From NCBI GenBank assembly GCA_017398945.1, contig JAFQES010000030.1, positions 28,586-92,585 of the forward strand: DNA of 64,000 bases, written 5' to 3'. The position numbers were made by a program, and so were the translations under genes. Position 1 is the first letter of the stretch, and each line of letters begins with the position of its first letter. Source of the stretch: Bacilli bacterium. Its GTDB lineage: Bacteria > Bacillota_I > Bacilli_A > RF39 > UBA660. The notes under the pieces were generated by a model. The model was not told the origin of the DNA. It did no database searches and worked only from the letters and a program-made list of their open reading frames with translations. This document shows, piece after piece, positions 17,079 through 58,153 of the stretch.

Positions 17079-17956
17079 TTTATGATGCAATAATAATTGG
17101 AGCCGGTCCTGCGGGACTTACAGCTGCTATATATTTGTTGCGAGCTAATAAAAAAGTTTTAGTATTAGAAAAAGAGACTATAGGAGGACAAATTTCGTCC
17201 TCTCCTTTAGTTGAAAATTATCCGGGGTATTTAAGTATAAGTGGTAGTGAACTTACTGGGAATATGTTCGATCAAGTATTAAATCTTGGGGGAGAAGTGG
17301 AAATTGAAGAAGTTATTAAAATAATTGAAAATGAAGTTATAACTGAGGATAATACTTATAAAACTAAAACGATTATAGTAGCAACAGGATGTAAGCCAAG
17401 GGTTTTAGGAATAGACAATGAAGAAAATTTAATTGGAAATGGAATACATTTTTGCGTAGCATGTGATGGAGCTTTTTATAAAGATAAAAAAGTTGCAGTA
17501 ATTGGTGGAGGAAATAGCGCCGTAATTAATGCCATTTCTTTAAGCGATTATTGTACAGAAGTTATTTTGATTCAAAATTTAGATCATCTAACAGCGGAAC
17601 AAAATTTAATTGATACTTTAAATAAAAAAAATAATGTAAAAATTATTTTAAATGGTAAAGTAGTAAGTTATATAGGTGAAGATGCTCTTGAAGGATTTAT
17701 TTTAAAAAACAATGAAGAAATTATAGTAGATGGTTTATTCTTATCGATTGGACAGGTACCTAATTCGGACTTTATAAAAGAATTTTTAGATATAAAAAAT
17801 AATTATATTGATTCTGATGATTGTTTAACTAAGTATCCAAATGTTTTTGTGGCTGGAGATGTTAGAACAAAAGAGATAAGACAACTAACTACTGCAACGA
17901 GTGATGGAACAACTTGTGCGATTAAAGCAATTGATTATTTAAACAATTTTTCTTAA
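17075..17956 (+). CDS. trxB: Thioredoxin-disulfide reductase-like flavoprotein
   Basis: GAGPAGLTAAIY FAD motif, redox-active CVACDG and GGGNSA NADPH motif. Its start overlaps the nrdD stop (ATGA). Confidence 0.85.
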   Translation: MIYDAIIIGAGPAGLTAAIYLLRANKKVLVLEKETIGGQISSSPLVENYPGYLSISGSELTGNMFDQVLNLGGEVEIEEVIKIIENEVITEDNTYKTKTIIVATGCKPRVLGIDNEENLIGNGIHFCVACDGAFYKDKKVAVIGGGNSAVINAISLSDYCTEVILIQNLDHLTAEQNLIDTLNKKNNVKIILNGKVVSYIGEDALEGFILKNNEEIIVDGLFLSIGQVPNSDFIKEFLDIKNNYIDSDDCLTKYPNVFVAGDVRTKEIRQLTTATSDGTTCAIKAIDYLNNFS

Positions 17957-18006
17957 GAAAAATTATTAAATAAGCAAATGTTTGTCTTGTTATAAGAGGT
18001 ATGTGT

Positions 18007-18558
18007 ATGATAAATAATAATGGTACAAAACTTGTAAACACTGAAAGAACAATATTAAGAAAATTTAAAACAAAAGATGCTTTAAGTTTTTTTGAAAATG
18101 TTGGGGGAGATGCTGAAGTATCGAAATATGTTGTATGGAATAGACATGAAAATGTTGAAGTAACAAAAAGAGCAATAAACAAGTGGATTGAAAATTATGA
18201 AAAAGATAATGTATATTATTGGGCTGTAGAATTAAAAGAAACAAATGAAATTATAGGATCTATTAGTTGTGTAAATGTAGATTTAAAAAATGCTACTTGT
18301 GAATTAGGATATGTATATGGTTCAAAATTTTGGAATAAAGGCTATGCAACAGAAGTTTTAAAAGCAGTTATAAATTATTTAATGAAAGAAGAGGGATTTT
18401 ATACTATCTATGCACAACATTTAAGTCTTAATCCTGCATCTGGACGAGTACTGGAAAAATCTGGCATGGTATATGAAGGAAGACTAAAAAATAGAATAAT
18501 AGATAAAAATACTGGCATATATGATGATCTATTGTCATATTCTATTTGTGCAAAATAA
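18007..18558 (+). CDS. GNAT family N-acetyltransferase (RimJ/RimL-like)
   Basis: GNAT motifs (IGSISCVNVD, WNKGYATEVLKAV). Confidence 0.75.
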   Translation: MINNNGTKLVNTERTILRKFKTKDALSFFENVGGDAEVSKYVVWNRHENVEVTKRAINKWIENYEKDNVYYWAVELKETNEIIGSISCVNVDLKNATCELGYVYGSKFWNKGYATEVLKAVINYLMKEEGFYTIYAQHLSLNPASGRVLEKSGMVYEGRLKNRIIDKNTGIYDDLLSYSICAK

Positions 18559-18647
18559 AGGCGTCTTTTATTAAAAAAATGTGGAATTTAATATAAGTTT
18601 CTACATTTTTTTATTTGCAAGAAAAAAGCAACTATTTTAGTAGTTGC

Positions 18648-20585
18648 TTATTCACCCATGATATTTTCAATTTCTTCAAGGCTATTTGATTCAGTATCAA
18701 TATCATTGTTTTCTATATTTGTTTCATTATTTTGATTCTCATTTTGATCAATATTTGGAATATCTATTTTTTCTGTTCCAACAGTAAATAAAACAGATTT
18801 GACATTTTTTACTAAAACGCCAGATGCAACATTTTGATTTGTAATTATATTGCTAGAACGATCTAAATAATCAAATTCGACTGTTATATTATTTTCTGTT
18901 GCCCAACTTTGAGCTTCGCTAACAGTTTTACCAATAAAGCTTGGCATTAATTTTAAACTTTCACCCGAACGAATTCCTTTGCCAAACACTTTTGATTCGT
19001 AGTCTTCATTAATTGAATAACTAAAAGTTTTAACTAATTCTGGTTTTTCTATTTCTAGATTTTCTTTCATCAATTTAGTTATTTCAGCAAGACTGTCTGG
19101 ATAATAAGATAGAGCAGATGTAACACGAGTTCCTAAATTTACTGGCAAAGAAGAAACTTCTAAATAAGTCTTTTTAATATTTATCATTTCTTCTTTATTT
19201 AAAGTTCTTTCTAACATGCTTTTTAAAATATCATAACTTGAAATTATTTGATCTCTACTCATATTAGTAGCAATATTGTTACTAACAGCATCTAAAACAC
19301 TTTCGAATTTATCAAAGCTATTGATAGTTAAAGCTTTTTGCGCTAGAGCAGTAATAACTTCTTGTTGGTGTCTATTTCTTGCTAAGTCACTTTCAATATA
19401 TTGGCTACGATTTCTAGCATAAGCTAAAGCTTGTTCTCCATCTAGGGTTTGCATTCCATAATCAAGATATATTACTTTTCCACTACTACGATCACTAGAT
19501 CCTGTACATACTTTCCCTTTACAATCTATTCCGTGGTTAGTATTAAAATCAGGTTCTTCTACATCTATAGTAACACCACCAACAGCATCGACTAAATGAA
19601 CTACAGCTTTAAAATTAACTTTTATATAATAATCTATTGGTATATCAGTTAATTGTTCAATAGTATCAATTACACAACTAGTTCCATAGGCAGCTGATGA
19701 ATTAATTTTAGCATAAGCATTATTTCGACACGCTATTGGAACATAAGTATCTCTTGGAATGCTAAACATTGTAGCAGTTAAAGTTTTAGGGTTAAATGTC
19801 ATTAAAATTAAAGTGTCTCCATTAAAAGCGGCATTAGCATCTAAACCTTCACTATCCGAATCAACGCCTAATGCTAATACTGTAAATGGTTCAGTTAAAC
19901 TCTTGTTGCTAATAATTTGTTTGTCTTCATTTTTTCTTTTTTCACTATATTTATAAATAATTTTAGTTACTTCACCAATATCTGTAAAATGTTCTTCGCC
20001 ATTAAATAAAGTAACATAATTTTCGGATACAAAGATTGCATCAACATCGCCGTTATATAAATCAGAAATCATTATTAAATAATCATCATATTTTTTGATA
20101 TCATTTTTTAATTTATATTTACTTAAAATTTCTTTAGCTAAAATATTACCTTCGATATCATCTTCATTTGATATCATACCAATCTTGCTATTTTCATTAA
20201 ATTCGGTATCCTTCATACTTATTAAATAAGAAGTATAAACAATCATATCTTTTTCGCCTAGACGATCTAGAGTATCATAGGCAAACGTAAATACAAAGTT
20301 AGCAACTCCAAATATAATACTAAATATGAATGTAAAAATAGTTAAGACTGTAAATAATTTGTACTTTTTTTGAACTAATTTAATTAAACCTACAAATAAG
20401 TAAGTAATAATCCAAATAGCAAAAAAGAAAATAACGATAACTCTGAGTAAAGTTTCTACATCTTTTAAAGAAAGAATATTTATTACAAATAAAATGTATA
20501 ATACTAGATATAATATGGTACTAATTCCAAAAAAAGATAGAGCAACTTTGCTAGCTTTTTTTAATTTTTTTAAAAGTACTTTCAT
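18648..20585 (-). CDS. LytR-CpsA-Psr (LCP) family cell-envelope phosphotransferase with N-terminal TM segments and a C-terminal extension
   Basis: LCP core (FTVLALGVDSD..., RDTYVPI...). Start moved to ATG (MKVLLKK) after AAAGGAG. The track start lies within the RBS. Confidence 0.8.
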   Translation of the reverse strand: MKVLLKKLKKASKVALSFFGISTILYLVLYILFVINILSLKDVETLLRVIVIFFFAIWIITYLFVGLIKLVQKKYKLFTVLTIFTFIFSIIFGVANFVFTFAYDTLDRLGEKDMIVYTSYLISMKDTEFNENSKIGMISNEDDIEGNILAKEILSKYKLKNDIKKYDDYLIMISDLYNGDVDAIFVSENYVTLFNGEEHFTDIGEVTKIIYKYSEKRKNEDKQIISNKSLTEPFTVLALGVDSDSEGLDANAAFNGDTLILMTFNPKTLTATMFSIPRDTYVPIACRNNAYAKINSSAAYGTSCVIDTIEQLTDIPIDYYIKVNFKAVVHLVDAVGGVTIDVEEPDFNTNHGIDCKGKVCTGSSDRSSGKVIYLDYGMQTLDGEQALAYARNRSQYIESDLARNRHQQEVITALAQKALTINSFDKFESVLDAVSNNIATNMSRDQIISSYDILKSMLERTLNKEEMINIKKTYLEVSSLPVNLGTRVTSALSYYPDSLAEITKLMKENLEIEKPELVKTFSYSINEDYESKVFGKGIRSGESLKLMPSFIGKTVSEAQSWATENNITVEFDYLDRSSNIITNQNVASGVLVKNVKSVLFTVGTEKIDIPNIDQNENQNNETNIENNDIDTESNSLEEIENIMGE

Positions 20586-20731
20586 AATGACTCCTTTGTA
20601 TTTTTTTAACATATTTAATTATAATATAAAATGATAATAAACTCAATGTTAAATTGTTGACACTATAATTGCATTTATGCATAAAAATAACTTTATTTAT
20701 GTTATAATTATTAAGATAGAAGGGATGAAAT

Positions 20732-22471
20732 ATGAGAAAATTTGTTAAAACAATATTTATTTTTATATTATTAATCATATTTTATCCAAGTATAACTTAT
20801 GCTGATGTTTATTATGTAACTAAAGAGGATGCTAATTTAAGGAGTACTGCTCAAGTAGTTGATGAAAATGTAATTATGTCAATTAAAAGAGGTGCGGTTG
20901 TAGAACTTTTATCCGAATCTAAAACTTGGGGTGGTTCTTGTAATTCTGGTTGGTATAATATTAGTTATGCTGGTAGTGTTGGGTATGTTTGTTCGGGATA
21001 TATTGCTTATGGAAATCCTGAAAATGAAACTGATGAATATTTAAGACCGTGGACTACTCCTAAAAAAGCTATTATAGGTGGAGCTAAATATATAGCTAGT
21101 TCTTATATAAATAGGGGACAAAATACTTCGTATTTAAAGAAATTTAACGTTACTAGCAATAGTACTTATAATCACCAATATATGGCTAATTTAGCAGCAC
21201 CTTATAGTGAATCTTATAATAGTTATAAAAGTTACCGAGATAATGGATTACTTGAATTACCATTAGAATTTTCAATCCCGATATTCACAAATATGCCTGA
21301 TTATACAAAATTGCCAGGAAAAGATGCTGATACTTCTTGTCAAATAGAAATTACGGATGAAGCGTTTGAAACAGAACTAAATAATCAAGGATTTCCCGAA
21401 AGTTATAAATGCAAATTAAGATTGTTACATACCAAATATCCAAATTGGAAATTTGTGGCATTTCAAACTAATTTAGATTTCAATAAATCAGTTAGGGCCG
21501 AACAAGCTGTTAGTTCGATTAATGGAGGAAGTATTTATTATGCAACTCCAGTAGAAGAAACTGAATCAGGTTGGTACATTGCTAATACCGAAACAGTAGA
21601 ATATTATTTAGATCCAAGAAACTTTTTAAATGAAGAAAGGATCTTAATGTTTGAAGATTTATCTTATCGAGATTATTATACTGAAAGTGCTATTAGTACG
21701 ATTTTAAAAGGAACATTCATGGAAGAGTATTCTTTATTAGATAATCAAACTTATTCAAGTATTTTTGTGGAGGCAGGTACTACTGCACAAATGTCTTCGG
21801 TTTATTTAGCTAGTTTGGCAAGACAAGAAAGTGGCTCTAATGGTTCAAAAGCAACCAGTGGAAACGAATTTACTTATCAAGGAACAACTTATAAAGGTTT
21901 ATATAATTTTTATAATATTGGTGCTAATAGTAGTGCAGAAAGTCCTATTTTAGCAGGACTTGTATGGGCGACTGGTGGGTTTGATACCGATTACGTAACT
22001 AATAATAATTCTAGTAGTTCATCAAATAATTCTTCTTCTGCTCCTCCGGCGGATAAAAATCCAAGTCCAGTTTTAAGTGAACAAGATATTTTAAATAAAA
22101 TGGGTGTAAAAAAGTCATCTGATTGTTTAACGGGGATAGAGCTTGGTAAAACAGTGGGAGAGCTGAAACAAAATTTATCTGGTTTAACCATCTCAACTGC
22201 ACTTGGAGATGGAGATAAAGTTAGAACAGGAATGATTTTAACAGTATCTGATGGAACAACGTCATATAAATATACTTTAGCAATAGCTGGAGATGTTGAT
22301 GGTGATGGGGAAATGATGGCAACTGATTATGTAAAAATAAAAAATTATATTATGGAAGTTAAAGATAGTAGTTTAAATGTTGCTCAAAGCTTAGCGGCTG
22401 ATGTTGATAACAATGGTTCAATTGGGGCAACTGATTATGTATTAATAAAAAATAATATTATGAATAGGTGA
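20732..22471 (+). CDS. Secreted cell-wall hydrolase-like protein: SH3b-like N-terminus, glucosaminidase-like domain, C-terminal dockerin-like repeat pair
   Basis: Signal peptide. YNFYNIGA resembles the glucosaminidase N[FM][FY]GIGA motif. Repeats DVDGDGEMMATDYVKIKNYIM and DVDNNGSIGATDYVLIKNNIM are dockerin type I-like. Confidence 0.55.
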   Translation: MRKFVKTIFIFILLIIFYPSITYADVYYVTKEDANLRSTAQVVDENVIMSIKRGAVVELLSESKTWGGSCNSGWYNISYAGSVGYVCSGYIAYGNPENETDEYLRPWTTPKKAIIGGAKYIASSYINRGQNTSYLKKFNVTSNSTYNHQYMANLAAPYSESYNSYKSYRDNGLLELPLEFSIPIFTNMPDYTKLPGKDADTSCQIEITDEAFETELNNQGFPESYKCKLRLLHTKYPNWKFVAFQTNLDFNKSVRAEQAVSSINGGSIYYATPVEETESGWYIANTETVEYYLDPRNFLNEERILMFEDLSYRDYYTESAISTILKGTFMEEYSLLDNQTYSSIFVEAGTTAQMSSVYLASLARQESGSNGSKATSGNEFTYQGTTYKGLYNFYNIGANSSAESPILAGLVWATGGFDTDYVTNNNSSSSSNNSSSAPPADKNPSPVLSEQDILNKMGVKKSSDCLTGIELGKTVGELKQNLSGLTISTALGDGDKVRTGMILTVSDGTTSYKYTLAIAGDVDGDGEMMATDYVKIKNYIMEVKDSSLNVAQSLAADVDNNGSIGATDYVLIKNNIMNR

Positions 22472-41761: not shown

Positions 41762-41766
41762 TCTAA

Positions 41767-41801
41767 AAAGTGAAGAAATGAAGTTTTTCTTCACTTTTTT
41801 T
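41767..41801 (+). terminator. Rho-independent terminator
   Basis: aaagtgaagaaa tgaag tttcttcacttt followed by T6. Confidence 0.7.
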
Positions 41802-41847: not shown

Positions 41848-42819
41848 ATGGAAAAAAATAATACTATAAATAAACTAAAAGGTGTATTAGAAAGTTCAAC
41901 AATGACTACTTATTTAAGAAGTCTTTCATCTGATGCAGAAAGATTAAATTGGCTTCAAAAAGCTTTATATTTTTTAATTTCTACTAGAGATTATGATGAA
42001 GTATTTTTATATTTATTAAATAGTAATGATTTGACTTTTCCAGTGGGGTATATGAATAACAAGGAGATTTTAGAAAGAGATATTCAAACAATATTTAAAA
42101 GGAATTATTTAAGAGATGGATTTTTATATCATGGTACTTCTAATGTACATAACAATAGTATTTTAGAACAAGGTTTAATTCCGTTATCTTTTAGATATGG
42201 CCAAGAATTGTTAGATGATGTAATCAAAATAAATTTGTTATGTAAACAAATTTCATTAAATACTTTAAAATATACTCAAGGAAAAGTTAGGCTGAGTGAG
42301 AATATGCCATTAGATTTTCTAAATGATAGAATAAATAAAGTGTTTTTAACTGCTGATATTTCACAAGCTTTTCACTATTGTTCTCTTAATAATAATTGGT
42401 TTAGGGATTTTATTGAAAATTTAATATTATTTATTGGTGGCGAAGCTAGTGGACTTTATTATGAAGAAAAAAACACCTTATTAAATCAAGTAATAACTAC
42501 TTTAAATCATTCTAAAGCGATAATCAGTGCTAATGAAAAAAAAGTATTTATTGAAAAATATTATAACAAGAATGAGGTGATAGCAAAAGCAGTTACAAAT
42601 TCTTTAGTAATTGTAAAAAATGATATTAATTTAAACGAATCTTTTGTTGATGTATTAGTTAATTTTAATGATAAAACTAGAGGAATTAATTATGTTTTAA
42701 ATCAAATTAATTATCAAGATATTTATACATCGAAAGTGGCTCCTCAAGATTTAGCAATTTTAAGTTTTAATAAAGATCAATCATTATCGTTGACAATTGG
42801 AAAAAAAGGGATGTTTTAA
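41848..42819 (+). CDS. ADP-ribosyltransferase-fold protein, H-Y-E class (PARP / Tpt1-KptA-like)
   Basis: FLYHGTSNVHNNSILEQGLIP parallels PARP [21 protein letters not shown] and Tpt1 LYHGT...SIL..GL. KVFLTADISQAFHYC parallels the PARP Y-x10-Y-C segment GIYFADMVSKSANYC. A possible catalytic acid lies in GLYYEEKN. Confidence 0.5.
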   Translation: MEKNNTINKLKGVLESSTMTTYLRSLSSDAERLNWLQKALYFLISTRDYDEVFLYLLNSNDLTFPVGYMNNKEILERDIQTIFKRNYLRDGFLYHGTSNVHNNSILEQGLIPLSFRYGQELLDDVIKINLLCKQISLNTLKYTQGKVRLSENMPLDFLNDRINKVFLTADISQAFHYCSLNNNWFRDFIENLILFIGGEASGLYYEEKNTLLNQVITTLNHSKAIISANEKKVFIEKYYNKNEVIAKAVTNSLVIVKNDINLNESFVDVLVNFNDKTRGINYVLNQINYQDIYTSKVAPQDLAILSFNKDQSLSLTIGKKGMF

Positions 42820-43043
42820 GTGGCAAAGAAAAAATTGTAGATACAAATTGTACAGAAGAAGAGTTTTTTATGAATTATTATCGTCTAACTGATTGCTTAA
42901 GAACTTTTGAGTTTGAAGCCACTTTAAATAATTGATTAATGTTATTAAACAATAATCTTAAAGATAAGTTAGATGATATTAAAACTGAGATAATTAAAGA
43001 AATAGATGCAAGAAAATAATTAAGTTAAAATAGGAGGATTTTT

Positions 43044-44840
43044 ATGGATTATATTAAGTTATTAAAAGAGATGTTAGAATTTAAAATAGATATTGATAAA
43101 ATTATGAAAAATTATGCTAATTATTTTTCGTTTTTATTAATCGATGAAAAAAATCAGCAAGAATTAGAGCAAAAAATTGCTTTATATTTAGTTCAAAATG
43201 AAATCTTTAATGAAGTAAAAATACATAAGACTTTTTTTCAATTATACTGTATGTATGCTAAAAATAAATTAGAAAAAGAAAAGAAAACATTAGAAGATTT
43301 ATTATTAGAAAATCCTGATTTAGAATATAACGAATATTTTAATCGTTTAGCCAAAAATTTAAATATTGAGATTACGATAAAAAAAACATGTGAAAATAAT
43401 GAATTGCCTTTCACTAAAACTTATATGGATTCTAATTCGACGGATACTATTACATTATTAAGAAATTGTACTAGTATTCAAATAAACTATGTAAAAAGTC
43501 ATCTTTTAACTGATGAATTAAATATTCTTATAAAAAAATTTGGAAAGCAATTAGATAGCCAAAATGAAATATCCTCCAAGGAAGAAACTATTTTAAAAAC
43601 ACAAATAATACCTAAAATAGATAAAATGATTAAACGCTATGCAGGGTATTATTATTATGATCAAATTTTTGCGGATCAAAAAAATCCATATAAAATGTTT
43701 GGGGCTTTTTACAGTTTAGATAATCATTATAAAAGATTGCTATTAGATTGCTATGGAAAAGAGTTAGAACTACCTATTGATGGTGTAAGTAAAGAAAATG
43801 AGCAAGAATTAAAAAAATTGGTTATTCCATATTTAAGAAATTATAATACTAAAGTGACTTATTACAGAAGGTTTGCTTTGTATCAAGAACTTATTAATTC
43901 GAATAAAGGTTATATTATTTCTATGTTACCTCAAGGATATATTGAAGTGTTAAAGTTGGCGGTGGATAATACTGATAAGATTTTTAGCACTTGTTCTGCG
44001 GATTTTGATATTAAAACATTAACAAGAGGGGTAAAGGCTTTGTTAGAATTATTATTAACTTCAGAAGAATTTTCTTTATTGGATTTACACTTGGGATTTT
44101 CTAGTAATCATACTTATACTTTTTCGGAAATAAGCAAGTTGTGTAATTTATCTGAATCCAAAATAGAAAGTATGTATGATGAAATAATAGTCAAATTGAG
44201 ATTATCACCACATTTAATAAGGGTTTTTAATATGTTGAATAAAAATAGAAATAATACTTTAAATTTTTCTGAACAGGAAGAACAATGTGTTAATAATCAT
44301 TTAGCTAAGACTAATTTTTATGGTTTTTTTACAAAGGATGAAATGAAATTATTACAAGATGCTTTCTTTAAGTTAACATTAGAAGAAATAGAATTTGTAA
44401 ATAAAATATTTAAAGGGGGATTATCCGAAAGTATTAGTTTGAAGACATTATCAACTTCTGAACAACATACTTTAGAATTAATTATTAATAAAACAAAGTC
44501 AAATATTAGTTGCTTTTTAGAGGATGAATGTGAACATAAAATCTTATATAATAATATTTTTAAAATTTGTTCTTTTATTTATTGTGAACCTTTTTATGAA
44601 GATTTGGTTTGTGAATTGTCAAGGGAGCAAATTCAAATATTAAATTTATTTATGGAATTTGATCAAATAAATGAGACAAGTTTAAAGCTAGTTGCTAAAA
44701 AATCAAATATGTCTTATTCACAAATTTGTGTTACTTTAAGAACAATTTTAGAAAGTATGAATCAAGTTTTTGAAAGAGTAAGTAAGAAAAATATTATTGT
44801 CCGTACTTTATTAGAAAAAAATCGTTTTAATAATTTATAA
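43044..44840 (+). CDS. Hypothetical protein with at least 3 tandem sigma-70 region-4-like HTH repeats
   Basis: Repeats RLLLDCYGKELELPIDGVSKENEQELKK. LTSEEFSLLDLHLGF...TFSEISKLCNLSESKIESMYDEIIVKLR. LSREQIQILNLFMEFDQINETSLKLVAKKSNMSYSQICVTLRTILESM. Confidence 0.5.
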   Translation: MDYIKLLKEMLEFKIDIDKIMKNYANYFSFLLIDEKNQQELEQKIALYLVQNEIFNEVKIHKTFFQLYCMYAKNKLEKEKKTLEDLLLENPDLEYNEYFNRLAKNLNIEITIKKTCENNELPFTKTYMDSNSTDTITLLRNCTSIQINYVKSHLLTDELNILIKKFGKQLDSQNEISSKEETILKTQIIPKIDKMIKRYAGYYYYDQIFADQKNPYKMFGAFYSLDNHYKRLLLDCYGKELELPIDGVSKENEQELKKLVIPYLRNYNTKVTYYRRFALYQELINSNKGYIISMLPQGYIEVLKLAVDNTDKIFSTCSADFDIKTLTRGVKALLELLLTSEEFSLLDLHLGFSSNHTYTFSEISKLCNLSESKIESMYDEIIVKLRLSPHLIRVFNMLNKNRNNTLNFSEQEEQCVNNHLAKTNFYGFFTKDEMKLLQDAFFKLTLEEIEFVNKIFKGGLSESISLKTLSTSEQHTLELIINKTKSNISCFLEDECEHKILYNNIFKICSFIYCEPFYEDLVCELSREQIQILNLFMEFDQINETSLKLVAKKSNMSYSQICVTLRTILESMNQVFERVSKKNIIVRTLLEKNRFNNL

Positions 44841-45197
44841 ACATGATATAACATTTATATTTAGGTGGGTGTTGTATGAACAAAATAGTATTAAAAAAAT
44901 TAAAAAAATTTAGTAAAGAGGTAATAGATTTAGACTTAATAAATAGTTTATTTAAAAGTGAAATAAACATATCTGAAGAGGATATAAAAAAACGAAAGTA
45001 AAAATGAAAAAGCTAAGCAAAATAGCTATCAATATTTATTTGTAACATTTAATATAACTGATGATAAATCAAAGGAAGTTTTAAAAGATAGAATAAAATT
45101 ACTTCCAAAACAAAACAGGGATTTATTAAAAAAGATTTATGGTGTTGAATTAGATCAGGCCCAAAATCTAAAAGATTTATCACAAAAAGAAATAAAT

Positions 45198-46061
45198 ATG
45201 TTTTATAGTTCAATTATTCCTAAACTAAAACAAATTTTCTATACATATTCAAAGTTCTATTATATGTTTAATATTACTGATGAAACTGAAAAAGTAGAAT
45301 TACTAGCAACGCTTGATAGTAAGTTATCAAAAGATTATTTAGTTATTTTGAAAAAAATATATGGTGAAGATTTAAATAGTGATTTTAACAGTGATTTTAT
45401 TTCTGAGGAAGAATATTGTTTATTTAAAGTAGCTATTTTAAAAAGCATAACTAAAATGCTTAATTATAAAAATGTAAAACCTGATAATAAATATCAATAT
45501 TTCTTTAAAATATTTGGGCGAGATGAAAAAACCAAAAGAGAAGTTAAAGCTATTTTAAATTATTTTGATAAAAAGAATTTAAATATTTTGACTAATTTAT
45601 ATGGAAGTAGTCTAGAAGACGAGTTAGATATTTCCAAGATTAAAAGTGATGAATATTATATTTTTGTGAGAACTATTGTTCCAAAAATATTTAAAATGTT
45701 GAATTTATATCATGAAAATGCGACAGCGTTAGTTGTAAATAAAGAAACTGAAAAAGCAGTAGATCAATCTGAAAAAATATCAGCGTTTATGTTAGATATA
45801 TACAAAAATCCCTTGTTTTTACAGTTAGCTAAATTGTTGCCTGAAAAAGATTGTATTATTTGGGTATTATATTGGGGATTAGATGTCAAAAAACTTACTG
45901 TTGAGGAAATTTCTAATTTAAAAACAATTAACATGATTGAAAGCGAAATTATAAATTCATTGAAAAAATCTGCTAAATTAATTAATTCTACAATAACTCA
46001 TTTAAATGAAATAATTAATTTTGAATCAATAATAAAATTAGTTAGAAAAGACCCAAGTTAA
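45198..46061 (+). CDS. Hypothetical protein of tandem sigma-70 region-4-like HTH repeats (paralog of 43044..44840); N-terminal repeat may lie upstream without a start codon
   Basis: Repeats LSKDYLVILKKIYGEDL..., LNILTNLYGSSLEDELD..., LPEKDCIIWVLYWGLDVKKLTVEEISNLKTINMIESEIINSLKK. An in-frame upstream segment (45057-45197) encodes LPKQNRDLLKKIYGVELD but has no ATG/GTG/TTG. Confidence 0.5.
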   Translation: MFYSSIIPKLKQIFYTYSKFYYMFNITDETEKVELLATLDSKLSKDYLVILKKIYGEDLNSDFNSDFISEEEYCLFKVAILKSITKMLNYKNVKPDNKYQYFFKIFGRDEKTKREVKAILNYFDKKNLNILTNLYGSSLEDELDISKIKSDEYYIFVRTIVPKIFKMLNLYHENATALVVNKETEKAVDQSEKISAFMLDIYKNPLFLQLAKLLPEKDCIIWVLYWGLDVKKLTVEEISNLKTINMIESEIINSLKKSAKLINSTITHLNEIINFESIIKLVRKDPS

Positions 46062-46086
46062 AAAGCGTTTTAAAAAACGCTTTTTA
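46061..46086. terminator. Bidirectional rho-independent terminator
   Basis: aaaagcgtttt aaa aaacgcttttt. Confidence 0.65.
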
Positions 46087-46698
46087 ATATTGTTTTATTT
46101 TCCATACATCATTTGTTTTCTCAAATATGATGAAGTTGTTATTTAAAGATGTTAAATAATAGTTTTTTTCATATGCTAGGGGAATTAATTCTTCTTGGCT
46201 ATCTAATGAGAAAATGGAGTTAGAAAAAACATTTCTTGGGCCATAATTTTCATTAGTATCTTTAATTATGCAATTTACAAATTCATTATTTAAAGTAGAG
46301 GTGTTTAAAAGGGTATTAATTATTTCAGGAGAAAAATAAATAGTTAATAAATCTTTTTGGATTTTTTGGCAAGATAGCTTTAAATCATTTAGTTTAACAT
46401 CTACATATGGACTTAATAAATTTTCTCCTTTAATAAGTTCATTTGCTTCATTGTAAGTGGTTAATATTTTACTAAATTCCGTTTTCTTTTCTAATTCTTT
46501 TGCTTCAATAGCTTTTTTTAAATCTTCATCACAATTTAATTTTAATATATGATTTTCTTGATAATTAAACCAATTATGAATTGGTCCAAAATATTTGTCG
46601 TATGCAATATATATTGATAAGCTTAAAAGTAATAGACAAAGAATAATTATAATAATATTGTATCTTAATTTGGTTAATTTCTTAGCTTTTTTGTTCAT
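46084..46698 (-). CDS. Hypothetical membrane-anchored protein (N-terminal TM)
   Basis: IIIIILCLLLLSLSIYIAY TM segment. Confidence 0.5.
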   Translation of the reverse strand: MNKKAKKLTKLRYNIIIIILCLLLLSLSIYIAYDKYFGPIHNWFNYQENHILKLNCDEDLKKAIEAKELEKKTEFSKILTTYNEANELIKGENLLSPYVDVKLNDLKLSCQKIQKDLLTIYFSPEIINTLLNTSTLNNEFVNCIIKDTNENYGPRNVFSNSIFSLDSQEELIPLAYEKNYYLTSLNNNFIIFEKTNDVWKIKQY

Positions 46699-46833
46699 TT
46701 ATTATCACCATTATAAATTATAACATTATTAATGGAAAAACAATTAATATTTTTACATTAATTTACAAAAAAGTGCAAATTGAATTTACTAAAATTTTTG
46801 TTTAATATATAATTAAAATAGTGGGTGATTGTG

Positions 46834-47280
46834 ATGACAGATAATTTATTACAACAATATTTAGAAGATTATAAAATAATATTAACCAATGTTTTAAACA
46901 CAATAAATCATCGTGTTTTTTCTGCTACAAAAAGATTTAATGAAGAAGAATTAGTTTTAATGGAACAAGATAGTTATGTGGTAAATGGAAAGGTATTAGA
47001 TGATTTAAATCGAATAAACTATGAAACGCAAAAAATTATTACATATTTAAATGATAACATTGAGCTTGATATTGAATCAGTTCGATTTTGTAAAAGTTGT
47101 TTAGAAGAAATAAAAAAAATGATAAATGACAATAATTTAAATGGCGCCAAACAAATATTAACTATAGTACAGGTTGTTTTAGGGTTTACAACCAGTTTTT
47201 ATAGTGTTTTTTTAGATATAGCAAAAGTGTTAAATAATATGAAACTTGCTAGGAAGAAAAAAGGTGATGTTAATGAGTAA
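46834..47280 (+). CDS. Hypothetical protein
   Basis: ATG 46834 after AGTGGGTGA. Its stop overlaps the next gene's start. Confidence 0.45.
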   Translation: MTDNLLQQYLEDYKIILTNVLNTINHRVFSATKRFNEEELVLMEQDSYVVNGKVLDDLNRINYETQKIITYLNDNIELDIESVRFCKSCLEEIKKMINDNNLNGAKQILTIVQVVLGFTTSFYSVFLDIAKVLNNMKLARKKKGDVNE

Positions 47281-49198
47281 TTTAAAAAACTTTTTTATAT
47301 TTTTAAATCAATTAGAGAAAACATATACGACTCAATTAAAAGACATAGATAATAAAATAGATAAATTAAAAAGTGATATAGTTAATTTTGAAAATAATTT
47401 ATCTAATCCTTCAAAGTTTATAAGAAATATGAGAGCGCTTATTTATGATTATGATATTAAAAATTTTGATCAGGATTATATTGAACATGAAATAAAAAAT
47501 ACAGTTGGTTTTAACTATGAAACACGAGCATTTAAACCTTTGAATATGGAATTATCTTTAGTATTAAAAGATTTTAAAAGACAAAGAAAAAGTATAAAGG
47601 GCTCACTAGCTGATATTTCTAAACTAAAAGTTTGTTTTAATGAAAATGCATTTTTAGTGAGTCAATTAGATTCTAATTGTTTCAAAATAGTTCAAGAAGT
47701 TTTAGGATTAATGAATATAAAAGATGTAGCTAAAACATTACAATATTTAACGATATATAATACAAGATTAATGCAAAAATCTTTGGAAGATGTTATAGAA
47801 GAACAAAAAACATCATCTTTACAAAAAGTTGTTGGAGCTGATAAAACAGTCGAAGAAAAAGTAATTATACCTAAAATTGGAAAAAAAGTTATTGATGTTT
47901 CAGGTAATAAGACGATTACTGAAGCTCAAAATATAATTTCTGCTAATCAAGAATTTGTAATGGTAATAAATGAAGAAGAAAAAGATTGCTATGAATTAAT
48001 AGTAGAAGAGGAAGAATATATATTTAATTTGGCTGTTAATAATATTTCTAATTTAAAAGTATCTATAATGGTATTAACTAATTTAGTAAATAAAGCTATT
48101 TCAATTGGTTTAACAAATGAGTTAGAAAATTTAATAGCCGATGTTATAGATTCATATAAGTCGCTAAAAGAAGTTGTAAAAAAAGAGGAAGAGGAAAGCC
48201 TTAAACAAAAAGCATTAGAAGATAAGTTTAAGCAAGAAAAGAAAAAATTGGAAGACTTAGAATCAGATAAAATTGAAAAAATATTAATTGAAGAACAAGA
48301 TTTTTTAGAATCTTTAAATGATTACGAAAAATCCTATAATGAAAATATTGCTAATTTTAGTAGTAATGATTGGAACTATATTGAATCTTTAGATGCTTTA
48401 AATGCTGCTTATCATATTACAACTGAATCTAATTCTGTTGTATATGGTCAATGTTTACAATTAATTAAAATAAGTGATAATTTAACTGAAGATAATTATT
48501 TAAAATATTATAGTTTAAAACAAATATTAGATTTAAAATCTAGTTTAGATGAGATTGAAGATAGTCATAATTTAACCATAGTTATTTCTGATTTAAAACA
48601 AGTAGTTCGCAATTATGAAGAAAATTTAAGGGTAGAAGTCCCAAAAATTGAAGAACAAAAAGATAGTCATAATTTAGTAGTTTATTTACAAGATAATAAT
48701 CAAACTTTGATAGAAGATTTTATTTTTAATGATAAAATTACTTCAAAAAATATTAATTTAAGTCATATAAATGGGATATCTTATTTAATTAAAATATTAA
48801 AAGATAGTGGTATAGATGCTATTCAAAAAAATTCTACTAAAGCTAAGGGCGATAATTTAACTGATGGTGAATTAAGAATTATTCATTCTGGAAGTGTTTA
48901 TTTAGCATTTAAATATTTTAGTAAAATTTATAATGGAGATGTTGTACCAATTATAACAATTATATCTGCAGGAATTAAATTAGGTGATGATAAGAGATTT
49001 TTTGATTATATAAATGAATCAACTACTTTAACAACATTAGATAACTTTGAAAGTACTGTTTTACCTACAATATTTGATGGTAGAAGGTTAGAAGATATAA
49101 AAAGGGAATTTCTATCGTTAGAACAACAAATGTTAAGTAATTTAACAAGCTATGTAAATAATGGCCATAGAAAAAATGGTAATTTAAATATAGGATAG
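47273..49198 (+). CDS. Hypothetical large coiled-coil-rich protein
   Basis: ATG 47273 overlaps the previous stop (ATGAGTAA). Glu/Lys-rich predicted coiled-coil stretches. Confidence 0.5.
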   Translation: MSNLKNFFIFLNQLEKTYTTQLKDIDNKIDKLKSDIVNFENNLSNPSKFIRNMRALIYDYDIKNFDQDYIEHEIKNTVGFNYETRAFKPLNMELSLVLKDFKRQRKSIKGSLADISKLKVCFNENAFLVSQLDSNCFKIVQEVLGLMNIKDVAKTLQYLTIYNTRLMQKSLEDVIEEQKTSSLQKVVGADKTVEEKVIIPKIGKKVIDVSGNKTITEAQNIISANQEFVMVINEEEKDCYELIVEEEEYIFNLAVNNISNLKVSIMVLTNLVNKAISIGLTNELENLIADVIDSYKSLKEVVKKEEEESLKQKALEDKFKQEKKKLEDLESDKIEKILIEEQDFLESLNDYEKSYNENIANFSSNDWNYIESLDALNAAYHITTESNSVVYGQCLQLIKISDNLTEDNYLKYYSLKQILDLKSSLDEIEDSHNLTIVISDLKQVVRNYEENLRVEVPKIEEQKDSHNLVVYLQDNNQTLIEDFIFNDKITSKNINLSHINGISYLIKILKDSGIDAIQKNSTKAKGDNLTDGELRIIHSGSVYLAFKYFSKIYNGDVVPIITIISAGIKLGDDKRFFDYINESTTLTTLDNFESTVLPTIFDGRRLEDIKREFLSLEQQMLSNLTSYVNNGHRKNGNLNIG

Positions 49199-49208
49199 AG
49201 GTGAAAAA

Positions 49209-50966
49209 ATGCAAGAATTAATTAGTAAACTAATTAATATATTTAAGATTATCTTAAATGAAAACTTTGATGAAAATAAATATAATCGTTCTTATAGTAT
49301 TCAGGATATTAAAGATTATATTCGATTGTTAGAAGATGATTTATATGCAATAAAAGATATCGATAAATATTTGTTAAATGTTTCTATAAGTGAAGATCAA
49401 AAGCGTGTTTTGGAGGCTTTTAAAACGACAATAGCTTTTAATGAGACTAATAATATTTTTTCTTTAGATGAACTAGATAAATATCGAAAGACAAATATTT
49501 ATAGTTACATTAAATCAGCATTAGTTCGACAAATTATTTTGTTAAGTGATGCCAAAAAAGCCAAAGAAGATTGTTTAAAGAAAAAACAAATATGTTTAAA
49601 AATATTAAATTTTCTTCAAAAACACGATTGTTCAAAACTTATTAACGAACAACAATTACATACTTTTTATAACTTTATAAATAGCATTAATTTACCTCAA
49701 GAAAAGCTTATTGAAATTAATTTATTATTATTTCAATTTAATTTAATGGCAAATCCTAATTTAGAGTTATCAAACAAATATGAATTGGTTGAGAGTATTA
49801 ATAAATTTAATATGACAAAAGATCAAGCTGTTGAAATTTTTGCTCAATATGGTTATGATTTTAACTTGGTTGATAGTAAAATTCAAGAAGAATTGTTAGT
49901 TTTAGGAAATGTCGATAGTATTAATGAAATGTTTAGTTATTTTGAAGATATAAAAAAAGAACATAAAATCAATTTTAATGAGAAAGATAATAAAATGGTT
50001 ACTTTATTATATAAAAGTAAGCCAGATATCTTCGATAATATTATAGAGTTAGCTGAAGGTAATATTAGTTTAGCAAAAATCTTAGAAACTATGCCAAGTG
50101 TTTTTATACATAAGGGAACATCTATAACTCAAAATAGCGAAAAGAAAAAGAAGGCTACAGTATCAGAACAAAATGACAAAACTCCTTCCGGAAGTTATGA
50201 GGATTTTATTTTAAATATTGAATTATTTAAATATTTAGGCTATGACATAAAAGAGGTATTTGTTAAAAATGCGGATATTTTGACTATTCCTCACGAAAGA
50301 ATTAAAAGGAATGTTGATCAATTAAAATTATTAGGAATTGATTTAAAAACTGATAAAAAGAAAGATTTTAAATTATCAGCCCTAAAATCCACATCATTGC
50401 TATTAACTATGGATAAGTTTATAGAATTGGGAGAATATGATTATTTAATGAATAATCTTTCGCGTTTTTATTTAGAGCCAAATTCAATAGTTTTTTATAG
50501 ATTATTTCATGTCAAAAAACATAATAATAGCTTTCCTAATCAACAAATAGAAATTTATTATGATAAAAATAAAACGAGATACAAAGGATATATATCTAAT
50601 TCAACCAATAAAGAATTGGGTATTAATGAAGAAAATAAAATAAGCGGTTTTGCAACCAGTCTTCCGATTATAAACCGTCCAGTTATTATAAATGAAGTTG
50701 TAGAGAAAAAGTTAGATGATTTAATTGTTGATCGATATGATAAAAAGGTAGTGGAGATAGATTCACGAATATTAATGCATCCAGTTGTTCAAAGAATAGA
50801 TGATAATTTTAAAACATCTAATGAATTAATTTATAACATTAATGGCATTTTAATTTCTCGACATAAGTTTTTACGCAATTTCATGGCAATTGTTGATGTA
50901 CGAAAAGATTTGGATTTAAGTGAAATTGTTGAGTTTTGTTTAATAAAAGATTCTTTATTAACATAA
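49209..50966 (+). CDS. Hypothetical helical-repeat protein (repeats of the form [FY]LxxLG[IY]D...)
   Basis: GAGGTGA RBS. Repeated about 30-aa units, e.g. VEIFAQYGYDFNLVDSKIQEELLVLG and LFKYLGYDIKEVFVKNADILTIPHERIKRNVDQLKLLGIDL, are reminiscent of mTERF-type repeats. Confidence 0.5.
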   Translation: MQELISKLINIFKIILNENFDENKYNRSYSIQDIKDYIRLLEDDLYAIKDIDKYLLNVSISEDQKRVLEAFKTTIAFNETNNIFSLDELDKYRKTNIYSYIKSALVRQIILLSDAKKAKEDCLKKKQICLKILNFLQKHDCSKLINEQQLHTFYNFINSINLPQEKLIEINLLLFQFNLMANPNLELSNKYELVESINKFNMTKDQAVEIFAQYGYDFNLVDSKIQEELLVLGNVDSINEMFSYFEDIKKEHKINFNEKDNKMVTLLYKSKPDIFDNIIELAEGNISLAKILETMPSVFIHKGTSITQNSEKKKKATVSEQNDKTPSGSYEDFILNIELFKYLGYDIKEVFVKNADILTIPHERIKRNVDQLKLLGIDLKTDKKKDFKLSALKSTSLLLTMDKFIELGEYDYLMNNLSRFYLEPNSIVFYRLFHVKKHNNSFPNQQIEIYYDKNKTRYKGYISNSTNKELGINEENKISGFATSLPIINRPVIINEVVEKKLDDLIVDRYDKKVVEIDSRILMHPVVQRIDDNFKTSNELIYNINGILISRHKFLRNFMAIVDVRKDLDLSEIVEFCLIKDSLLT

Positions 50967-56310: not shown

Positions 56311-56365
56311 TTTTTCTATTTTTTTTGTTATTTAAATGGTATACTTATGATAGTAGGTGATTGTA

Positions 56366-58153
56366 ATGACTAATTTGTATATTCCCGCTTGTGCGTTTTT
56401 TATTTCAATATTAATGATTATTATTTTTTATTCAAGAGAAAATCTAGAAACCACAGAAACAAAAACATTTTCTTATATGTTAGTAGCTAGTTTATTAGAT
56501 ATTATTTTGACACTATCTATAATGTATATTGGATATACTAATGTAGATATTCCAGATTTAGTTATATTTTTAAATCGAATTGACTATTTAATGTTAATTA
56601 CATGGGTATCGTCATTTGCATATTATATATTTTATATTACTTTTAAAAGCCATCCAAAAATAAATTTTGCTAAAATTGCTAAGTCTGTTAAATATGCTGA
56701 TGTTGTTTTCTTTATTTTTATGTTTTTGTTACCTGTTGAATTATTTAATGATGGCGTGGTTATGTATGCTTATGGAGCAGCGGTAAATGTCTTATATCTA
56801 GTCTGTTTAATAAGTATTATAGTTATTATAAGTTGTTTAATTTATGGTCATAAGAATTTATTTACGAAAAAATATATGCCAGTATATGTATTAATTGTTT
56901 TAATGATTTTGACTTTAATTATCAGGGGTATAAATCCAGGATCAATAATTATTCCAGCAGTTATTTGTTATATTAACTTAATCTTACTTTTAACAATAGA
57001 AAATCCGGATATTAAAATTATAGCGCTTTTAAGTGAAGCAAAGAAAAAAGCAGAAAAGTATGCTAATGATAAAGAAATATTTACTTTTAATATGTCGCAA
57101 AAAATAAAGGAACCTGTTAATAATATTGAAAAAGTTTGTGATAAGATTATCAATGAAGATAATATAGAAAAAATAAGAAGTGGATTAGAAAGTATCAAAT
57201 TGTCTACTCAAAAAGTAACATATTTAGTTAATGATTCATTAAATATATCAACATCAAATAGTAAATTTAAAGTTGTTGAAAAACAATATAAATTAGACAA
57301 TCTTTTAAAGGAAATAACTTTATTTTCTAAGAATAAATCTAAAGTAAAAAATGTAACTTTTAACTTTTATGTTGATAATAAACCAAGGTTGTTGGTTGGA
57401 GACTCACTTAAAATAAAACAAGTTATGATTGCATTTACTAGTAATTTATTTAGTAAGTTGGAAAATAAACATTTGAGTTTAAATATAACTACTAAAGAAA
57501 AAGAAGAAGCTTGCAATGTTATTTTTAGATATTCAATGTCAAAAATAAATATATCGTTAGATGATTTAAATAAAAATGTGGAAATAGATGATTTTGAAAA
57601 TATTGATTTAGATGAAGCGAATCTAGCTCATTTAAAAAAGATGATAAATTTATTGTCTGGTTATTTAGAAGTAAAAAATGAAGAAGACAATAAAACAGAG
57701 ATAATTATAACAATAGAACAAAAGAAAACGTTTATTGAAAATGAAAAAGAGCTAGAATATATTAATGAGTATGAAAAAATGATTCAAAAAAACCAAAAAA
57801 TATTAATAATTGATGATGATAAAAATAGTGTTAAAGAACTAGAAAAAAATATTGATAAATATAATTATGATGTAGTGATTGCAAACGGTGGTCAAGAAGG
57901 GTTAGAAATAATTAGAAATAAAGAAGATGTTTCATTAATATTTATTGATGATACTTTAGAAAAACTAGATACTATTACCACGTTTACTAAACTAAAAATA
58001 ATAGATGGTTTTAATATTCCAGTGATTTATGTTGGAGAAGTTAAAGATAATAAAGAGATAAGTAAATTATTACAATTAGGATTTAAAGGGGTATTATTAA
58101 AACCGGTTAAATTGAGAGAATTAGATGAGCTAATAAAAAAATACTTAAAGTAG
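56366..58153 (+). CDS. Membrane hybrid sensor-kinase-like protein with degenerate HisKA/HATPase and a C-terminal receiver domain
   Basis: About 6 N-terminal TM helices. The H-box position reads FNMSQKIKEPVNNI (Q where His is expected). C-terminal REC-like ILIIDDDKNS...IFIDDTLEKLD...LLKPV. Confidence 0.5.
   Translation: MTNLYIPACAFFISILMIIIFYSRENLETTETKTFSYMLVASLLDIILTLSIMYIGYTNVDIPDLVIFLNRIDYLMLITWVSSFAYYIFYITFKSHPKINFAKIAKSVKYADVVFFIFMFLLPVELFNDGVVMYAYGAAVNVLYLVCLISIIVIISCLIYGHKNLFTKKYMPVYVLIVLMILTLIIRGINPGSIIIPAVICYINLILLLTIENPDIKIIALLSEAKKKAEKYANDKEIFTFNMSQKIKEPVNNIEKVCDKIINEDNIEKIRSGLESIKLSTQKVTYLVNDSLNISTSNSKFKVVEKQYKLDNLLKEITLFSKNKSKVKNVTFNFYVDNKPRLLVGDSLKIKQVMIAFTSNLFSKLENKHLSLNITTKEKEEACNVIFRYSMSKINISLDDLNKNVEIDDFENIDLDEANLAHLKKMINLLSGYLEVKNEEDNKTEIIITIEQKKTFIENEKELEYINEYEKMIQKNQKILIIDDDKNSVKELEKNIDKYNYDVVIANGGQEGLEIIRNKEDVSLIFIDDTLEKLDTITTFTKLKIIDGFNIPVIYVGEVKDNKEISKLLQLGFKGVLLKPVKLRELDELIKKYLK

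Follow-up and report, generated by a model that had tools for sequence, protein, structure and literature searches.

A 64,000-nucleotide stretch of DNA from an uncultured Bacilli bacterium (hereafter the window; G+C ~25%) carries on its forward strand two neighbouring open reading frames (ORFs), at 43044-44840 (598 aa) and 45198-46061 (287 aa), whose products are identical to the hypothetical proteins IJA94_06200 and IJA94_06205 of a metagenome-assembled genome ("MAG: Bacilli bacterium"). Both frames had been described in the original prediction, which was made from the sequence and regarded their products as paralogues composed of tandem helix-turn-helix (HTH) repeats of the sigma-70 region 4 type, and both were found to be present. 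Domain 4 of a sigma factor (σ4) recognises the -35 element and binds to the β-flap, anti-sigma factors and activators act on it, and sigma factors are normally regarded as ending there. The locus raises the question of what proteins are that carry this domain several times over, and what they do. As judged from profile and model comparisons, both proteins are built from duplicated derivatives of sigma-70 domain 4, of which a few are full length and most are trimmed to a three-helix form without the first HTH helix. To the module represented by the 598-aa protein (w598) we assign, with a probability of about one half, a role as an accessory of sigma factor or RNA polymerase that would work through protein contacts and not as a DNA-binding array.

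Two types of unit were distinguished: full-length σ4-like units, two in w598 and one in the second protein, and short units of ~52 aa, three in each protein. An iterative hidden Markov model (HMM) seeded on one unit described the short type as a core of ~52 aa with a period of ~80 aa and the consensus klkeAinkLpeeekniLkklYGenLdqein.knlskeEynklintIiPKikk. Three copies were found in w598, three in the 394-aa reconstruction of the second gene product (wBx, see below), three in each w598 orthologue and 20, in register, in a 1,862-aa protein; per-copy E-values in the window proteins were 1e-11 to 1e-18. A new family of σ4-derived short-repeat proteins can be defined by at least three copies of this unit, at a spacing of ~70-85 aa and with the consensus ...A-x-x-x-L-x7-L-x3-Y-G-x-x-L-D ... 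I-I-P-K-I; both window proteins belong to it, with three copies each in the family HMM and in an independent one. This independent HMM, for which 70 repeats were drawn from seven proteins outside the window lineage and no sequence of that lineage was used, matched only 2 of 633 stop-to-stop six-frame segments, namely 44988-46058 (E 2e-12) and 43029-44837 (E 1.3e-11). When both proteins were shuffled 1000 times, the best score was 11.3 bits, compared to real per-domain scores of up to 35.5 bits. The specificity of the independent HMM together with the shuffle ceiling argues that the repeats are not a compositional artefact of AT-rich DNA, an outcome that the original prediction had named beforehand as its own refutation and that the pattern has survived.

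In w598 (43044-44840, forward strand; orthologues P0002, P0003, P0005 and P0006, with 55% identity to P0002 and 37% to P0003) an N-terminal head is followed by five σ4-derived units. The head (aa 17-83, 43092-43292) is homologous to the extreme N-terminus of sigma-plus-extension proteins described below (hhalign 96.8%, E 2e-10, with 0.3% for the reversed control; the blastp match was weak, E 0.006). Short unit 1 (aa 152-194, 43497-43625; HMM E 2.6e-11, independent HMM 35.5 bits) and short unit 2 (aa 220-266, 43701-43841; E 3.3e-14, 17.3 bits) precede a central full-length σ4-like unit (aa 339-398, 44058-44237, LTSEEFSLLDLHLGF...KLRLSPHL), which was matched by hhalign, by NCBIfam and, below the cut-off, by Pfam. 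Short unit 3 (aa 436-486, 44349-44501; E 1.4e-14, with a weak score of 2.7 bits in the independent HMM) and a C-terminal full-length σ4-like unit (aa 524-590, 44613-44813), assigned by hhalign of its unit family and without a Pfam match of its own, complete the protein.

The second protein is encoded by an open frame of 357 codons (44988-46061, forward strand) that holds the annotated 287-aa ORF; it contains three units of the short type and, at its C-terminus, a σ4-like domain. As had been noted before of an extra in-frame repeat upstream of the ORF, this frame is open back to 44988 and includes LPKQNRDLLKKIYGVELD, with no ATG, GTG or TTG start there. Numbered on the 394-aa reconstruction, short unit 1 (aa 68-119, 45078-45233; HMM E 4e-18, independent HMM 30.4 bits) straddles the annotated ATG at 45198, and is followed by short unit 2 (aa 142-193, 45300-45455; E 1e-15, 15.1 bits) and short unit 3 (aa 222-273, 45540-45695; E 8e-16, 14.3 bits). 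The C-terminal full-length σ4-like unit (45834-46031, LPEKDCIIWVLYWGLDVKKLTVEEISNL...SLKKS) is conserved with the C-terminal end of the 1,862-aa protein and is part of the C-terminal unit family used for hhalign; alone, it gave no Pfam match.

Descent from sigma-70 region 4 is clearest in the long units. In hhalign comparisons with canonical region 4 (r4), the family of central long units was matched at 97.5% (E 7e-12, 56 columns) and the family of C-terminal long units at 95.9% (E 5e-9, 54 columns). The aligned 54-56 columns of Sigma70 region 4 (PF04545/PF08281, especially of RpoD/SigA) include the L-x-x-x-E-x-x-[IV]-[IL] ... G motif, the HTH and the K-L-R ending, and the tail KLRHPSRS of SigA region 4 resembles KLR-x-SP-x-L of the central unit. 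On the central unit of two orthologues Pfam Sigma70_r4 (PF04545, gathering cut-off 24.1 bits) scored above its cut-off (P0003, 31.4 bits; P0002, 28.8 bits), and the central unit of w598 itself matched positions 162-226 of NCBIfam RpoD_Cterm (E 0.009). The short unit was matched to canonical r4 at 70% (E 4e-5) over the first 33 columns only, and when aligned to the family's own central unit it shows a 6-residue gap at the first HTH helix. The same r4 half-domain recurs in seven multi-repeat relatives, and the short-unit profile matched, among PDB sequences, the first r4 helix of FliA (E 0.044). Compared to Sigma70 region 4, the window family differs in being multi-copy, in lacking σ2 and σ3, in not conserving the -35-reading residues and in that most copies have the shortened three-helix form, corresponding to profile positions ~1-30 only.

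An AlphaFold2 model of the 357-aa frame, computed from an alignment of 23 three-repeat windows taken out of giant relatives, reached a mean predicted local distance difference test (pLDDT) value of 81. Each short unit was modelled as a pair of short helices joined to a long helix by a loop, which takes the position of the first HTH helix, and the C-terminal unit as four helices including the extra short HTH helix. In a Foldseek search against the PDB the best local matches were isolated σ4 domains (4g8x_A with probability 0.95, template modelling score 0.74 and root-mean-square deviation 2.3 Å; 6ono_D with probability 0.90), and the list consisted mostly of sigma-factor chains. A search of the same model against viral structures returned nothing meaningful, and phmmer of w598 against PDB sequences gave no match.

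Several points count against this descent. The canonical r4 reference used for hhalign was partly entered by hand and partly taken from the Pfam-confirmed r4 of the 949-aa relative L001_949. The window proteins themselves stay below the Pfam cut-off: as whole proteins they gave no match, and w598 aa 330-405 reached 13.9 bits. No single short unit passes Pfam, the matched profile positions being only ~1-21 (r4) or 2-32 (r4_2) and not the whole 50-position profile. Summed short-unit scores for Sigma70_r4/r4_2 are above the cut-off in P0022 (47.6 bits), P0009 (40.1 and 48.1 bits) and P0066 (32.7 bits), but summed partial Pfam scores on repeat proteins also yield spurious families, and the weight of these values lies in their consistency across proteins. 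Foldseek gave nothing at E <= 0.001 in the PDB, and an AlphaFold2 model of w598 from a 3-sequence alignment had a pLDDT of 52 and was not used. The relation to sigma-70 region 4 claimed in the original prediction is therefore carried by hhalign, by the Pfam matches of orthologues and by the σ4 matches in Foldseek, with the window proteins remaining sub-cut-off. Its description as tandem HTHs was overstated: the repeats are real, but the commonest unit covers the first ~20-30 r4 positions without the first HTH helix, and the full form with the TxxEIS motif fits only the long units, which lie at aa 339-398 and aa 524-590 in w598 and at the C-terminal end of the second protein. Regions 2 and 3 are missing from both window proteins, as had been stated; no Sigma70_r2 match was found with Pfam, and an HMM of the sigma core found nothing in P0001 or P0004. 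Since they lack σ2, w598 and the second protein are not sigma factors.

Relatives proved to be rare. Word-indexed searches with the 394-aa reconstruction retrieved only itself, those with the repeat alignment nothing, and those with w598 only two homologues; we attribute this to the K/N/I-rich composition of the family, as an exhaustive HMMER profile search of 1.84 billion representatives succeeded and yielded 82 proteins at E <= 1e-3. Ten clusters of the family were looked up and all proved to be without a name, a scan of GTDB genomes returned only an already-known MAG from goat rectum, and Joint Genome Institute metagenomes returned nothing. In the literature searched, neither tandem region-4 proteins nor RpoD-like sigma factors with such tails are described. 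The proposal of an undescribed family is borne out to this extent, although tandem proteins made of r4 only do exist in databases (P0028).

The relatives fall into five classes. Three clusters consist of ~595-aa proteins like w598 (class i). Seven clusters at 50% identity contain proteins of 894-947 aa in which Sigma70 r1.2, r2, r3 and r4 are followed by a w598-like tail (class ii); among the NCBIfam models RpoD fits their cores best, although below the equivalog cut-off. Against PRK09210 (cut-off 572) P0010 scored 322, L001_949 252 and the class iii protein P0017 281, and the RpoD_Cterm scores were 231-276 (cut-off 354). L001_949 shows the order r1.2, r2, r3, r4 and w598-like extension. Class iii combines a sigma core with 3-5 short units, which come after the core (P0017, P0019, P0024, P0036 and others) or, in P0069, short units before it. 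Class iv comprises core-less arrays of 7-20 short units each (P0009, P0016, P0020, P0022, P0023, P0056 and P0066), and class v arrays of canonical r4 domains (P0028, P0037 and P0041). The family is thus not free of sigma factors, as relatives are paired with or fused to complete sigma cores.

Giant proteins of 1,208-1,862 aa with 11-20 short units were seen at 14684-21788 of the goat-rectum locus (L001) and in P0009, P0016, P0023 and P0056. By eye, several giants from other lineages than that of the window begin with a sigma-region-2-like sequence (...NGSNDARKKIINNLSSVIYDTL...) and end with an HTH; Pfam and the core HMM did not confirm this start. Going by this visual resemblance, the giants may be sigma-like, with a spacer that has expanded hugely. 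P0028 is encoded on a 990-kb contig, and both P0028 and P0037 lack a database name.

The related contigs stem from gut metagenomes of goat and cattle, and their gene order links the family to sigma factors. In L001, genes for glycosyltransferases, Polysacc_synt, DUF3048, a 320-aa protein (equivalent to w323, the gene upstream in the window), a 381-aa sigma factor and a 595-aa protein are followed by those for the 949-aa sigma-plus-tail protein, the 1,862-aa repeat protein and a further repeat protein of more than 1,568 aa. The core gene order is the same in L004 and L012, and in all three loci 0-11 nt separate the end of the sigma gene from the start of the 595-type gene. In the more distant locus L011 the corresponding place is taken by one gene only, which encodes a 914-aa sigma-plus-tail protein and is flanked by a glycosyltransferase cluster, a convergent ~210-aa gene, BacA and NUDIX, all of which are present in the window too. 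As these flanks are syntenic across the clade including L011, the locus is regarded as chromosomal and conserved, and not as the mobile island that had been suggested. A ~214-aa gene of L011, beside the 914-aa gene, has the same position as a 204-aa gene of the window.

The free and the fused forms were related to each other by alignment. The tail of w598 (aa 79-593) aligns to aa 447-940 of L001_949 (E 1e-43), and the 381-aa sigma factor to its middle (residues 113-444). With the head of w598 at one end of the 949 type, its tail at the other and the sigma factor in between, the 595 type corresponds to the 949 type minus the sigma core. A simple split of the 949 type into the 381-aa and 595-aa pair was rejected, as the 949-type head stays with the 595-aa protein.

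This pattern, fusion to a sigma core in some proteins and a place next to a sigma gene in others, is the main argument that the module works with a sigma factor. Its σ4-like surfaces would make protein-protein contacts with sigma factor or RNA polymerase, the fused form acting in cis and the free-standing form in trans, much as the regulatory C-terminal extensions of some extracytoplasmic function (ECF) sigma factors do, and the units would not be -35-type DNA readers. Protein contacts are favoured because most units lack the HTH, w598 is acidic (isoelectric point (pI) 6.0; central unit net -3), the residues equivalent to R584, E585, R588 and Q589, which by E. coli σ70 numbering we take to be those reading the -35 element, are replaced in the w598 family alignment, and KLR-SP-L is the best conserved motif. 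In σ70 region 4.2 this end of the last helix is a protein-contact surface. In the window genome w598 would be orphaned or act on another sigma factor. Two points tell against the proposed role: the cognate sigma gene is gone from the window locus, so that the proposed partner is absent there, and DNA of another specificity could be bound by the full-length HTH units, of which there are two per protein.

Known systems offer partial parallels. ECF sigma factors with fused regulatory C-terminal extensions, such as groups ECF41 and ECF42 (PMC3426412, PMC8999054), resemble the 894-947-aa relatives in that a long extension is joined to the C-terminal side of the sigma core, which suggests regulation of the sigma factor in cis. 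They differ in that the cores of the relatives are RpoD-like and the extension consists of σ4 duplicates instead of SnoaL or TPR domains, and in that the window proteins have no core. P0028 (938 aa, nine r4 stretches), P0037 and P0041, which were found with the w598 profile, are likewise core-free region-4 arrays; they carry full canonical HTH units with 126-249 bits in total, whereas the window family is more diverged and dominated by the trimmed unit. YlxM/UPF0122 is a stand-alone σ4-like fold, and UPF0122 matched weakly on region 4 of the neighbouring sigma factor and on P0028. In contrast to the window family, it is a single-domain protein of ~110 aa of the ffh operon without a repeat array, and it did not match the window proteins. 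For MzaA of the MZA anti-phage system, no PADLOC match was obtained with the window proteins, and the L001 sigma cores reached 133 bits through the generic sigma region (NCBIfam cut-off 800).

A different function would follow if the proteins were multi-HTH DNA-binding regulators or nucleoid-associated proteins, each σ4-like unit sitting on a -35-like site and the array coating or bridging DNA. The two full-length units of w598 and the one of the second protein would suit this, as would the existence of proteins with nine tandem canonical Sigma70_r4 domains (P0028) and the mildly basic character of some orthologues (L001_595, pI 8.8). Most units, however, lack the first HTH helix, the charge of the window proteins is neutral to acidic, the residues expected to read the -35 element are not conserved, and the consistent genomic link is to sigma genes and to no DNA feature. 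A DNA-binding role, which had been put forward in the original prediction, is for these reasons disfavoured and appears unlikely.

In PhyR, a σ-like domain made of a σ2-like and a σ4-like part, each in single copy, is combined with a receiver domain and acts as a decoy when alphaproteobacteria mount their general stress response. PhyR shares with the window proteins a sigma-derived domain that lacks sigma function and would be used for protein-protein interaction, but the window proteins have neither a receiver (no Response_reg domain was found with Pfam) nor a σ2-like part, and their units form tandem arrays. By analogy, the window proteins could be σ4 decoys that sequester σ4-binding proteins such as anti-sigma factors or activators, or that compete for the β-flap. 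They have σ4-like folds without σ2, and their most conserved motif, KLR-SP-L, corresponds to what in σ70 is a protein-contact surface. Against this, the locus contains no anti-sigma-like gene, the cytoplasmic tail of the neighbouring 204-aa membrane protein has only ~12 residues, and the fusion of paralogues to complete sigma cores points to action on the module's own sigma factor and not on a third party. We therefore consider decoys to be quite improbable.

Upstream of w598, a ~220-bp remnant of a sigma-70-family gene was found at 42798-43021 (forward strand), of which the first ~42 codons are recognisable; it has an in-frame stop at 42933 and overlaps the end of w323. With tblastn, aa 1-42 of the 381-aa sigma factor of L001 matched 42798-42923 at 50% identity (E 1.4e-8). 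The deletion in the sigma gene comprises ~1 kb, positions 697-1717 of L004 having no window counterpart in blastn. The intact sigma orthologues score 29-41 bits with Sigma70_r2 and weakly with r3/r4. A 949-type gene is absent from the window locus. Relative to L004 and L001 three deletions were counted. One lies in the sigma gene, and the giant gene carries the two others, in its N-terminal domain and in its repeat array, of whose about 20 repeats 3 are left.

Our reading is that the window holds one copy, in part decayed, of a sigma-factor-associated locus that is lineage-specific to an uncultured clade of ruminant-gut Bacilli; w598 has stayed intact in it. Taken further, the same decay would mean that nothing functional is left, both genes being relics and w598 an intact-looking orphan ORF. 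The three independent deletions, the frame disrupted in all four assemblies and the missing 949-type gene are in line with this. On the other hand, w598 is full length, collinear with all orthologues from end to end and free of internal stops in a genome of 23% G+C, in which random frames close quickly; it also keeps its Shine-Dalgarno sequence and sits inside a terminator-bounded unit. Complete loss of function is accordingly regarded as quite improbable.

The second gene (44876-46061) is most likely a pseudogene, which at best would give a truncated product or, rarely, a frameshifted full-length one. Its start is preserved in a 41-codon ORF (44876-45001, forward strand) with a good Shine-Dalgarno sequence (AGGTGG), the N-terminal remnant of a giant repeat-protein gene: MNKIVLKKLKKFSKEVID of this ORF matches MNKIVVEKLKGHSQTEID of the 1,862-aa L001 protein as well as the start of L004_297. 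The first ~20 residues of wBx match the N-termini of the orthologous giant proteins, and the remnant has an internal deletion of ~200 nt. This ORF and a second tiny one (45005-45046) had been predicted, with coordinates one base off (44877-45002 and 45004-45045). At an A7 run (44986-44992) the homology to the N-terminal domain of the orthologue ends and the reading passes from frame 2 to frame 0; once one A is removed, the 41-codon ORF runs on into the frame downstream, and the 394 aa of wBx result. Downstream, 44988-46061 is the counterpart of the C-terminus and the three final repeats of the 1,862-aa orthologue (tblastn to L001 19256-20260, E 4e-43), with many further tblastn matches to its internal repeats.

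Upstream of the run, blastn aligned 44900-44986 to L004 3813-3893 at 87% identity. Within this stretch 44930-44986 and L004 3837-3893 share 54 of 57 nt (95%) up to exactly the A7 run, compared to ~70% identity of the loci elsewhere at the DNA level; local constraint or recent exchange could account for this block. The A7 run is identical in L005, L006 and L007, which are from other samples, so that four assemblies carry the same sequence. An assembly error was rejected on these grounds, and the disruption is regarded as genuine and resembling a deletion scar. The view that the gene is intact apart from a simple slip of 1 nt was also rejected, as homology to the orthologue stops at the run. Of the N-terminal frameshift that had been suggested, the disruption of the N-terminus thus stands, but it lies at a deletion junction in a gene with 3 instead of ~20 repeats and is no simple slip.

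The second gene might still be expressed at full length, either because ribosomes shift by +1 at the A7 run or because transcription slips there, or it might be switched on and off by phase variation of the run. The good ribosome-binding site before 44876 would be compatible with this, as would a frame change that needs the loss of exactly one A in a homopolymer. All four assemblies, however, carry seven A's, which is short for efficient slippage; the end of DNA homology at the run marks a deletion junction and not a conserved recoding site, and the orthologues have no A run at this position. Such expression is very unlikely. That the pattern is no true repeat family but a low-complexity artefact of an AT-rich genome, as the K/N/I-rich composition and the lack of a Pfam match on the window proteins might suggest, was already refuted by the independent HMM and the shuffle test, and also disagrees with the 20 in-register copies of the orthologue and the confident periodic AlphaFold model.

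In the window, w323, the sigma remnant, w598 and wBx form one unit between two terminator-like hairpins, of which 2 were found in 5.3 kb compared to 0.4 expected. The 5' hairpin (41765-41799, forward strand), whose 14-bp stem leads into a T run, terminates the DUF3048 gene that lies upstream, and the 3' hairpin (46057-46088, forward strand) is common to the convergent gene of the 204-aa membrane protein. Promoter-like sites were not more frequent than in shuffled sequences, and no promoter is claimed. No Rfam family reached its gathering score anywhere in the window (1-64000). The first gene of the unit, w323 (41848-42819, forward strand), encodes a conserved 323-aa protein with tblastn identities of 48% to L001 7878-8837 and 62% to L004, and its homologues lie upstream of the pair of sigma and 595-type genes in L001, L004 and L012 (319 aa in L012). 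Its LYHGTS motif presumably recalls ADP-ribosyltransferases of the Tpt1/PARP type, but the label of an ADP-ribosyltransferase gene, which it had been given before, found no support, as w323 has no match in Pfam, NCBIfam, PADLOC or, with phmmer, PDB sequences. PADLOC gave no match for any protein of 41848-50966, and a reading of the locus as a defence system was dropped for this reason.

Further genes of the neighbourhood were noted. The 204-aa protein encoded at 46084-46698 on the reverse strand, convergent with the repeat gene, is a single-pass membrane protein. At 46825-50966 three consecutive acidic proteins (151, 650 and 585 aa) without Pfam or PADLOC match are encoded, which have no counterpart in the 21.8 kb of L001 that were fetched and seem to be lineage-specific. 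Another protein of 598 aa is encoded at 56357-58153; a C-terminal receiver is its sole recognisable domain, and its first ~480 residues are without assignment.

For annotation, these results identify the 287-aa "hypothetical protein" as the tail of a disrupted gene and add an otherwise unannotated sigma pseudogene at 42798-43021. The domain as such is known; not described in the literature searched are the tandem trimmed σ4 units, the RpoD-like sigma factors with tails of σ4 repeats, the free head-plus-tail proteins and the giants with 20 units. Tentatively, they can be seen as a new sigma appendage of this clade, in which σ4 duplicates, mostly stripped of the HTH, possibly serve as tails of 450-500 aa on RpoD-like cores, as free partners (w598) and in proteins of 1,200-1,900 aa with up to 20 units. 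The σ4 module appears reused in four ways, behind RpoD-like cores, as a separate protein beside a sigma gene, in giant arrays and, in the window, in the course of being lost, and the fused, split and deleted states provide a natural series on the evolution of sigma accessory domains. The window copy is degraded, and it is the intact orthologous loci that make the family testable. If the module regulates sigma factor or RNA polymerase, it would represent a new, compact and testable mechanism, for which heterologous co-expression with the partner sigma factor is feasible. Should holoenzyme assembly, the choice of promoter or the availability of sigma factor be under the control of the tails, a hitherto unrecognised layer in the control of transcription initiation would have been found, and if the 900-aa proteins are the sole primary sigma factor of these organisms, they would be the first primary sigma factor with a large C-terminal regulatory extension.

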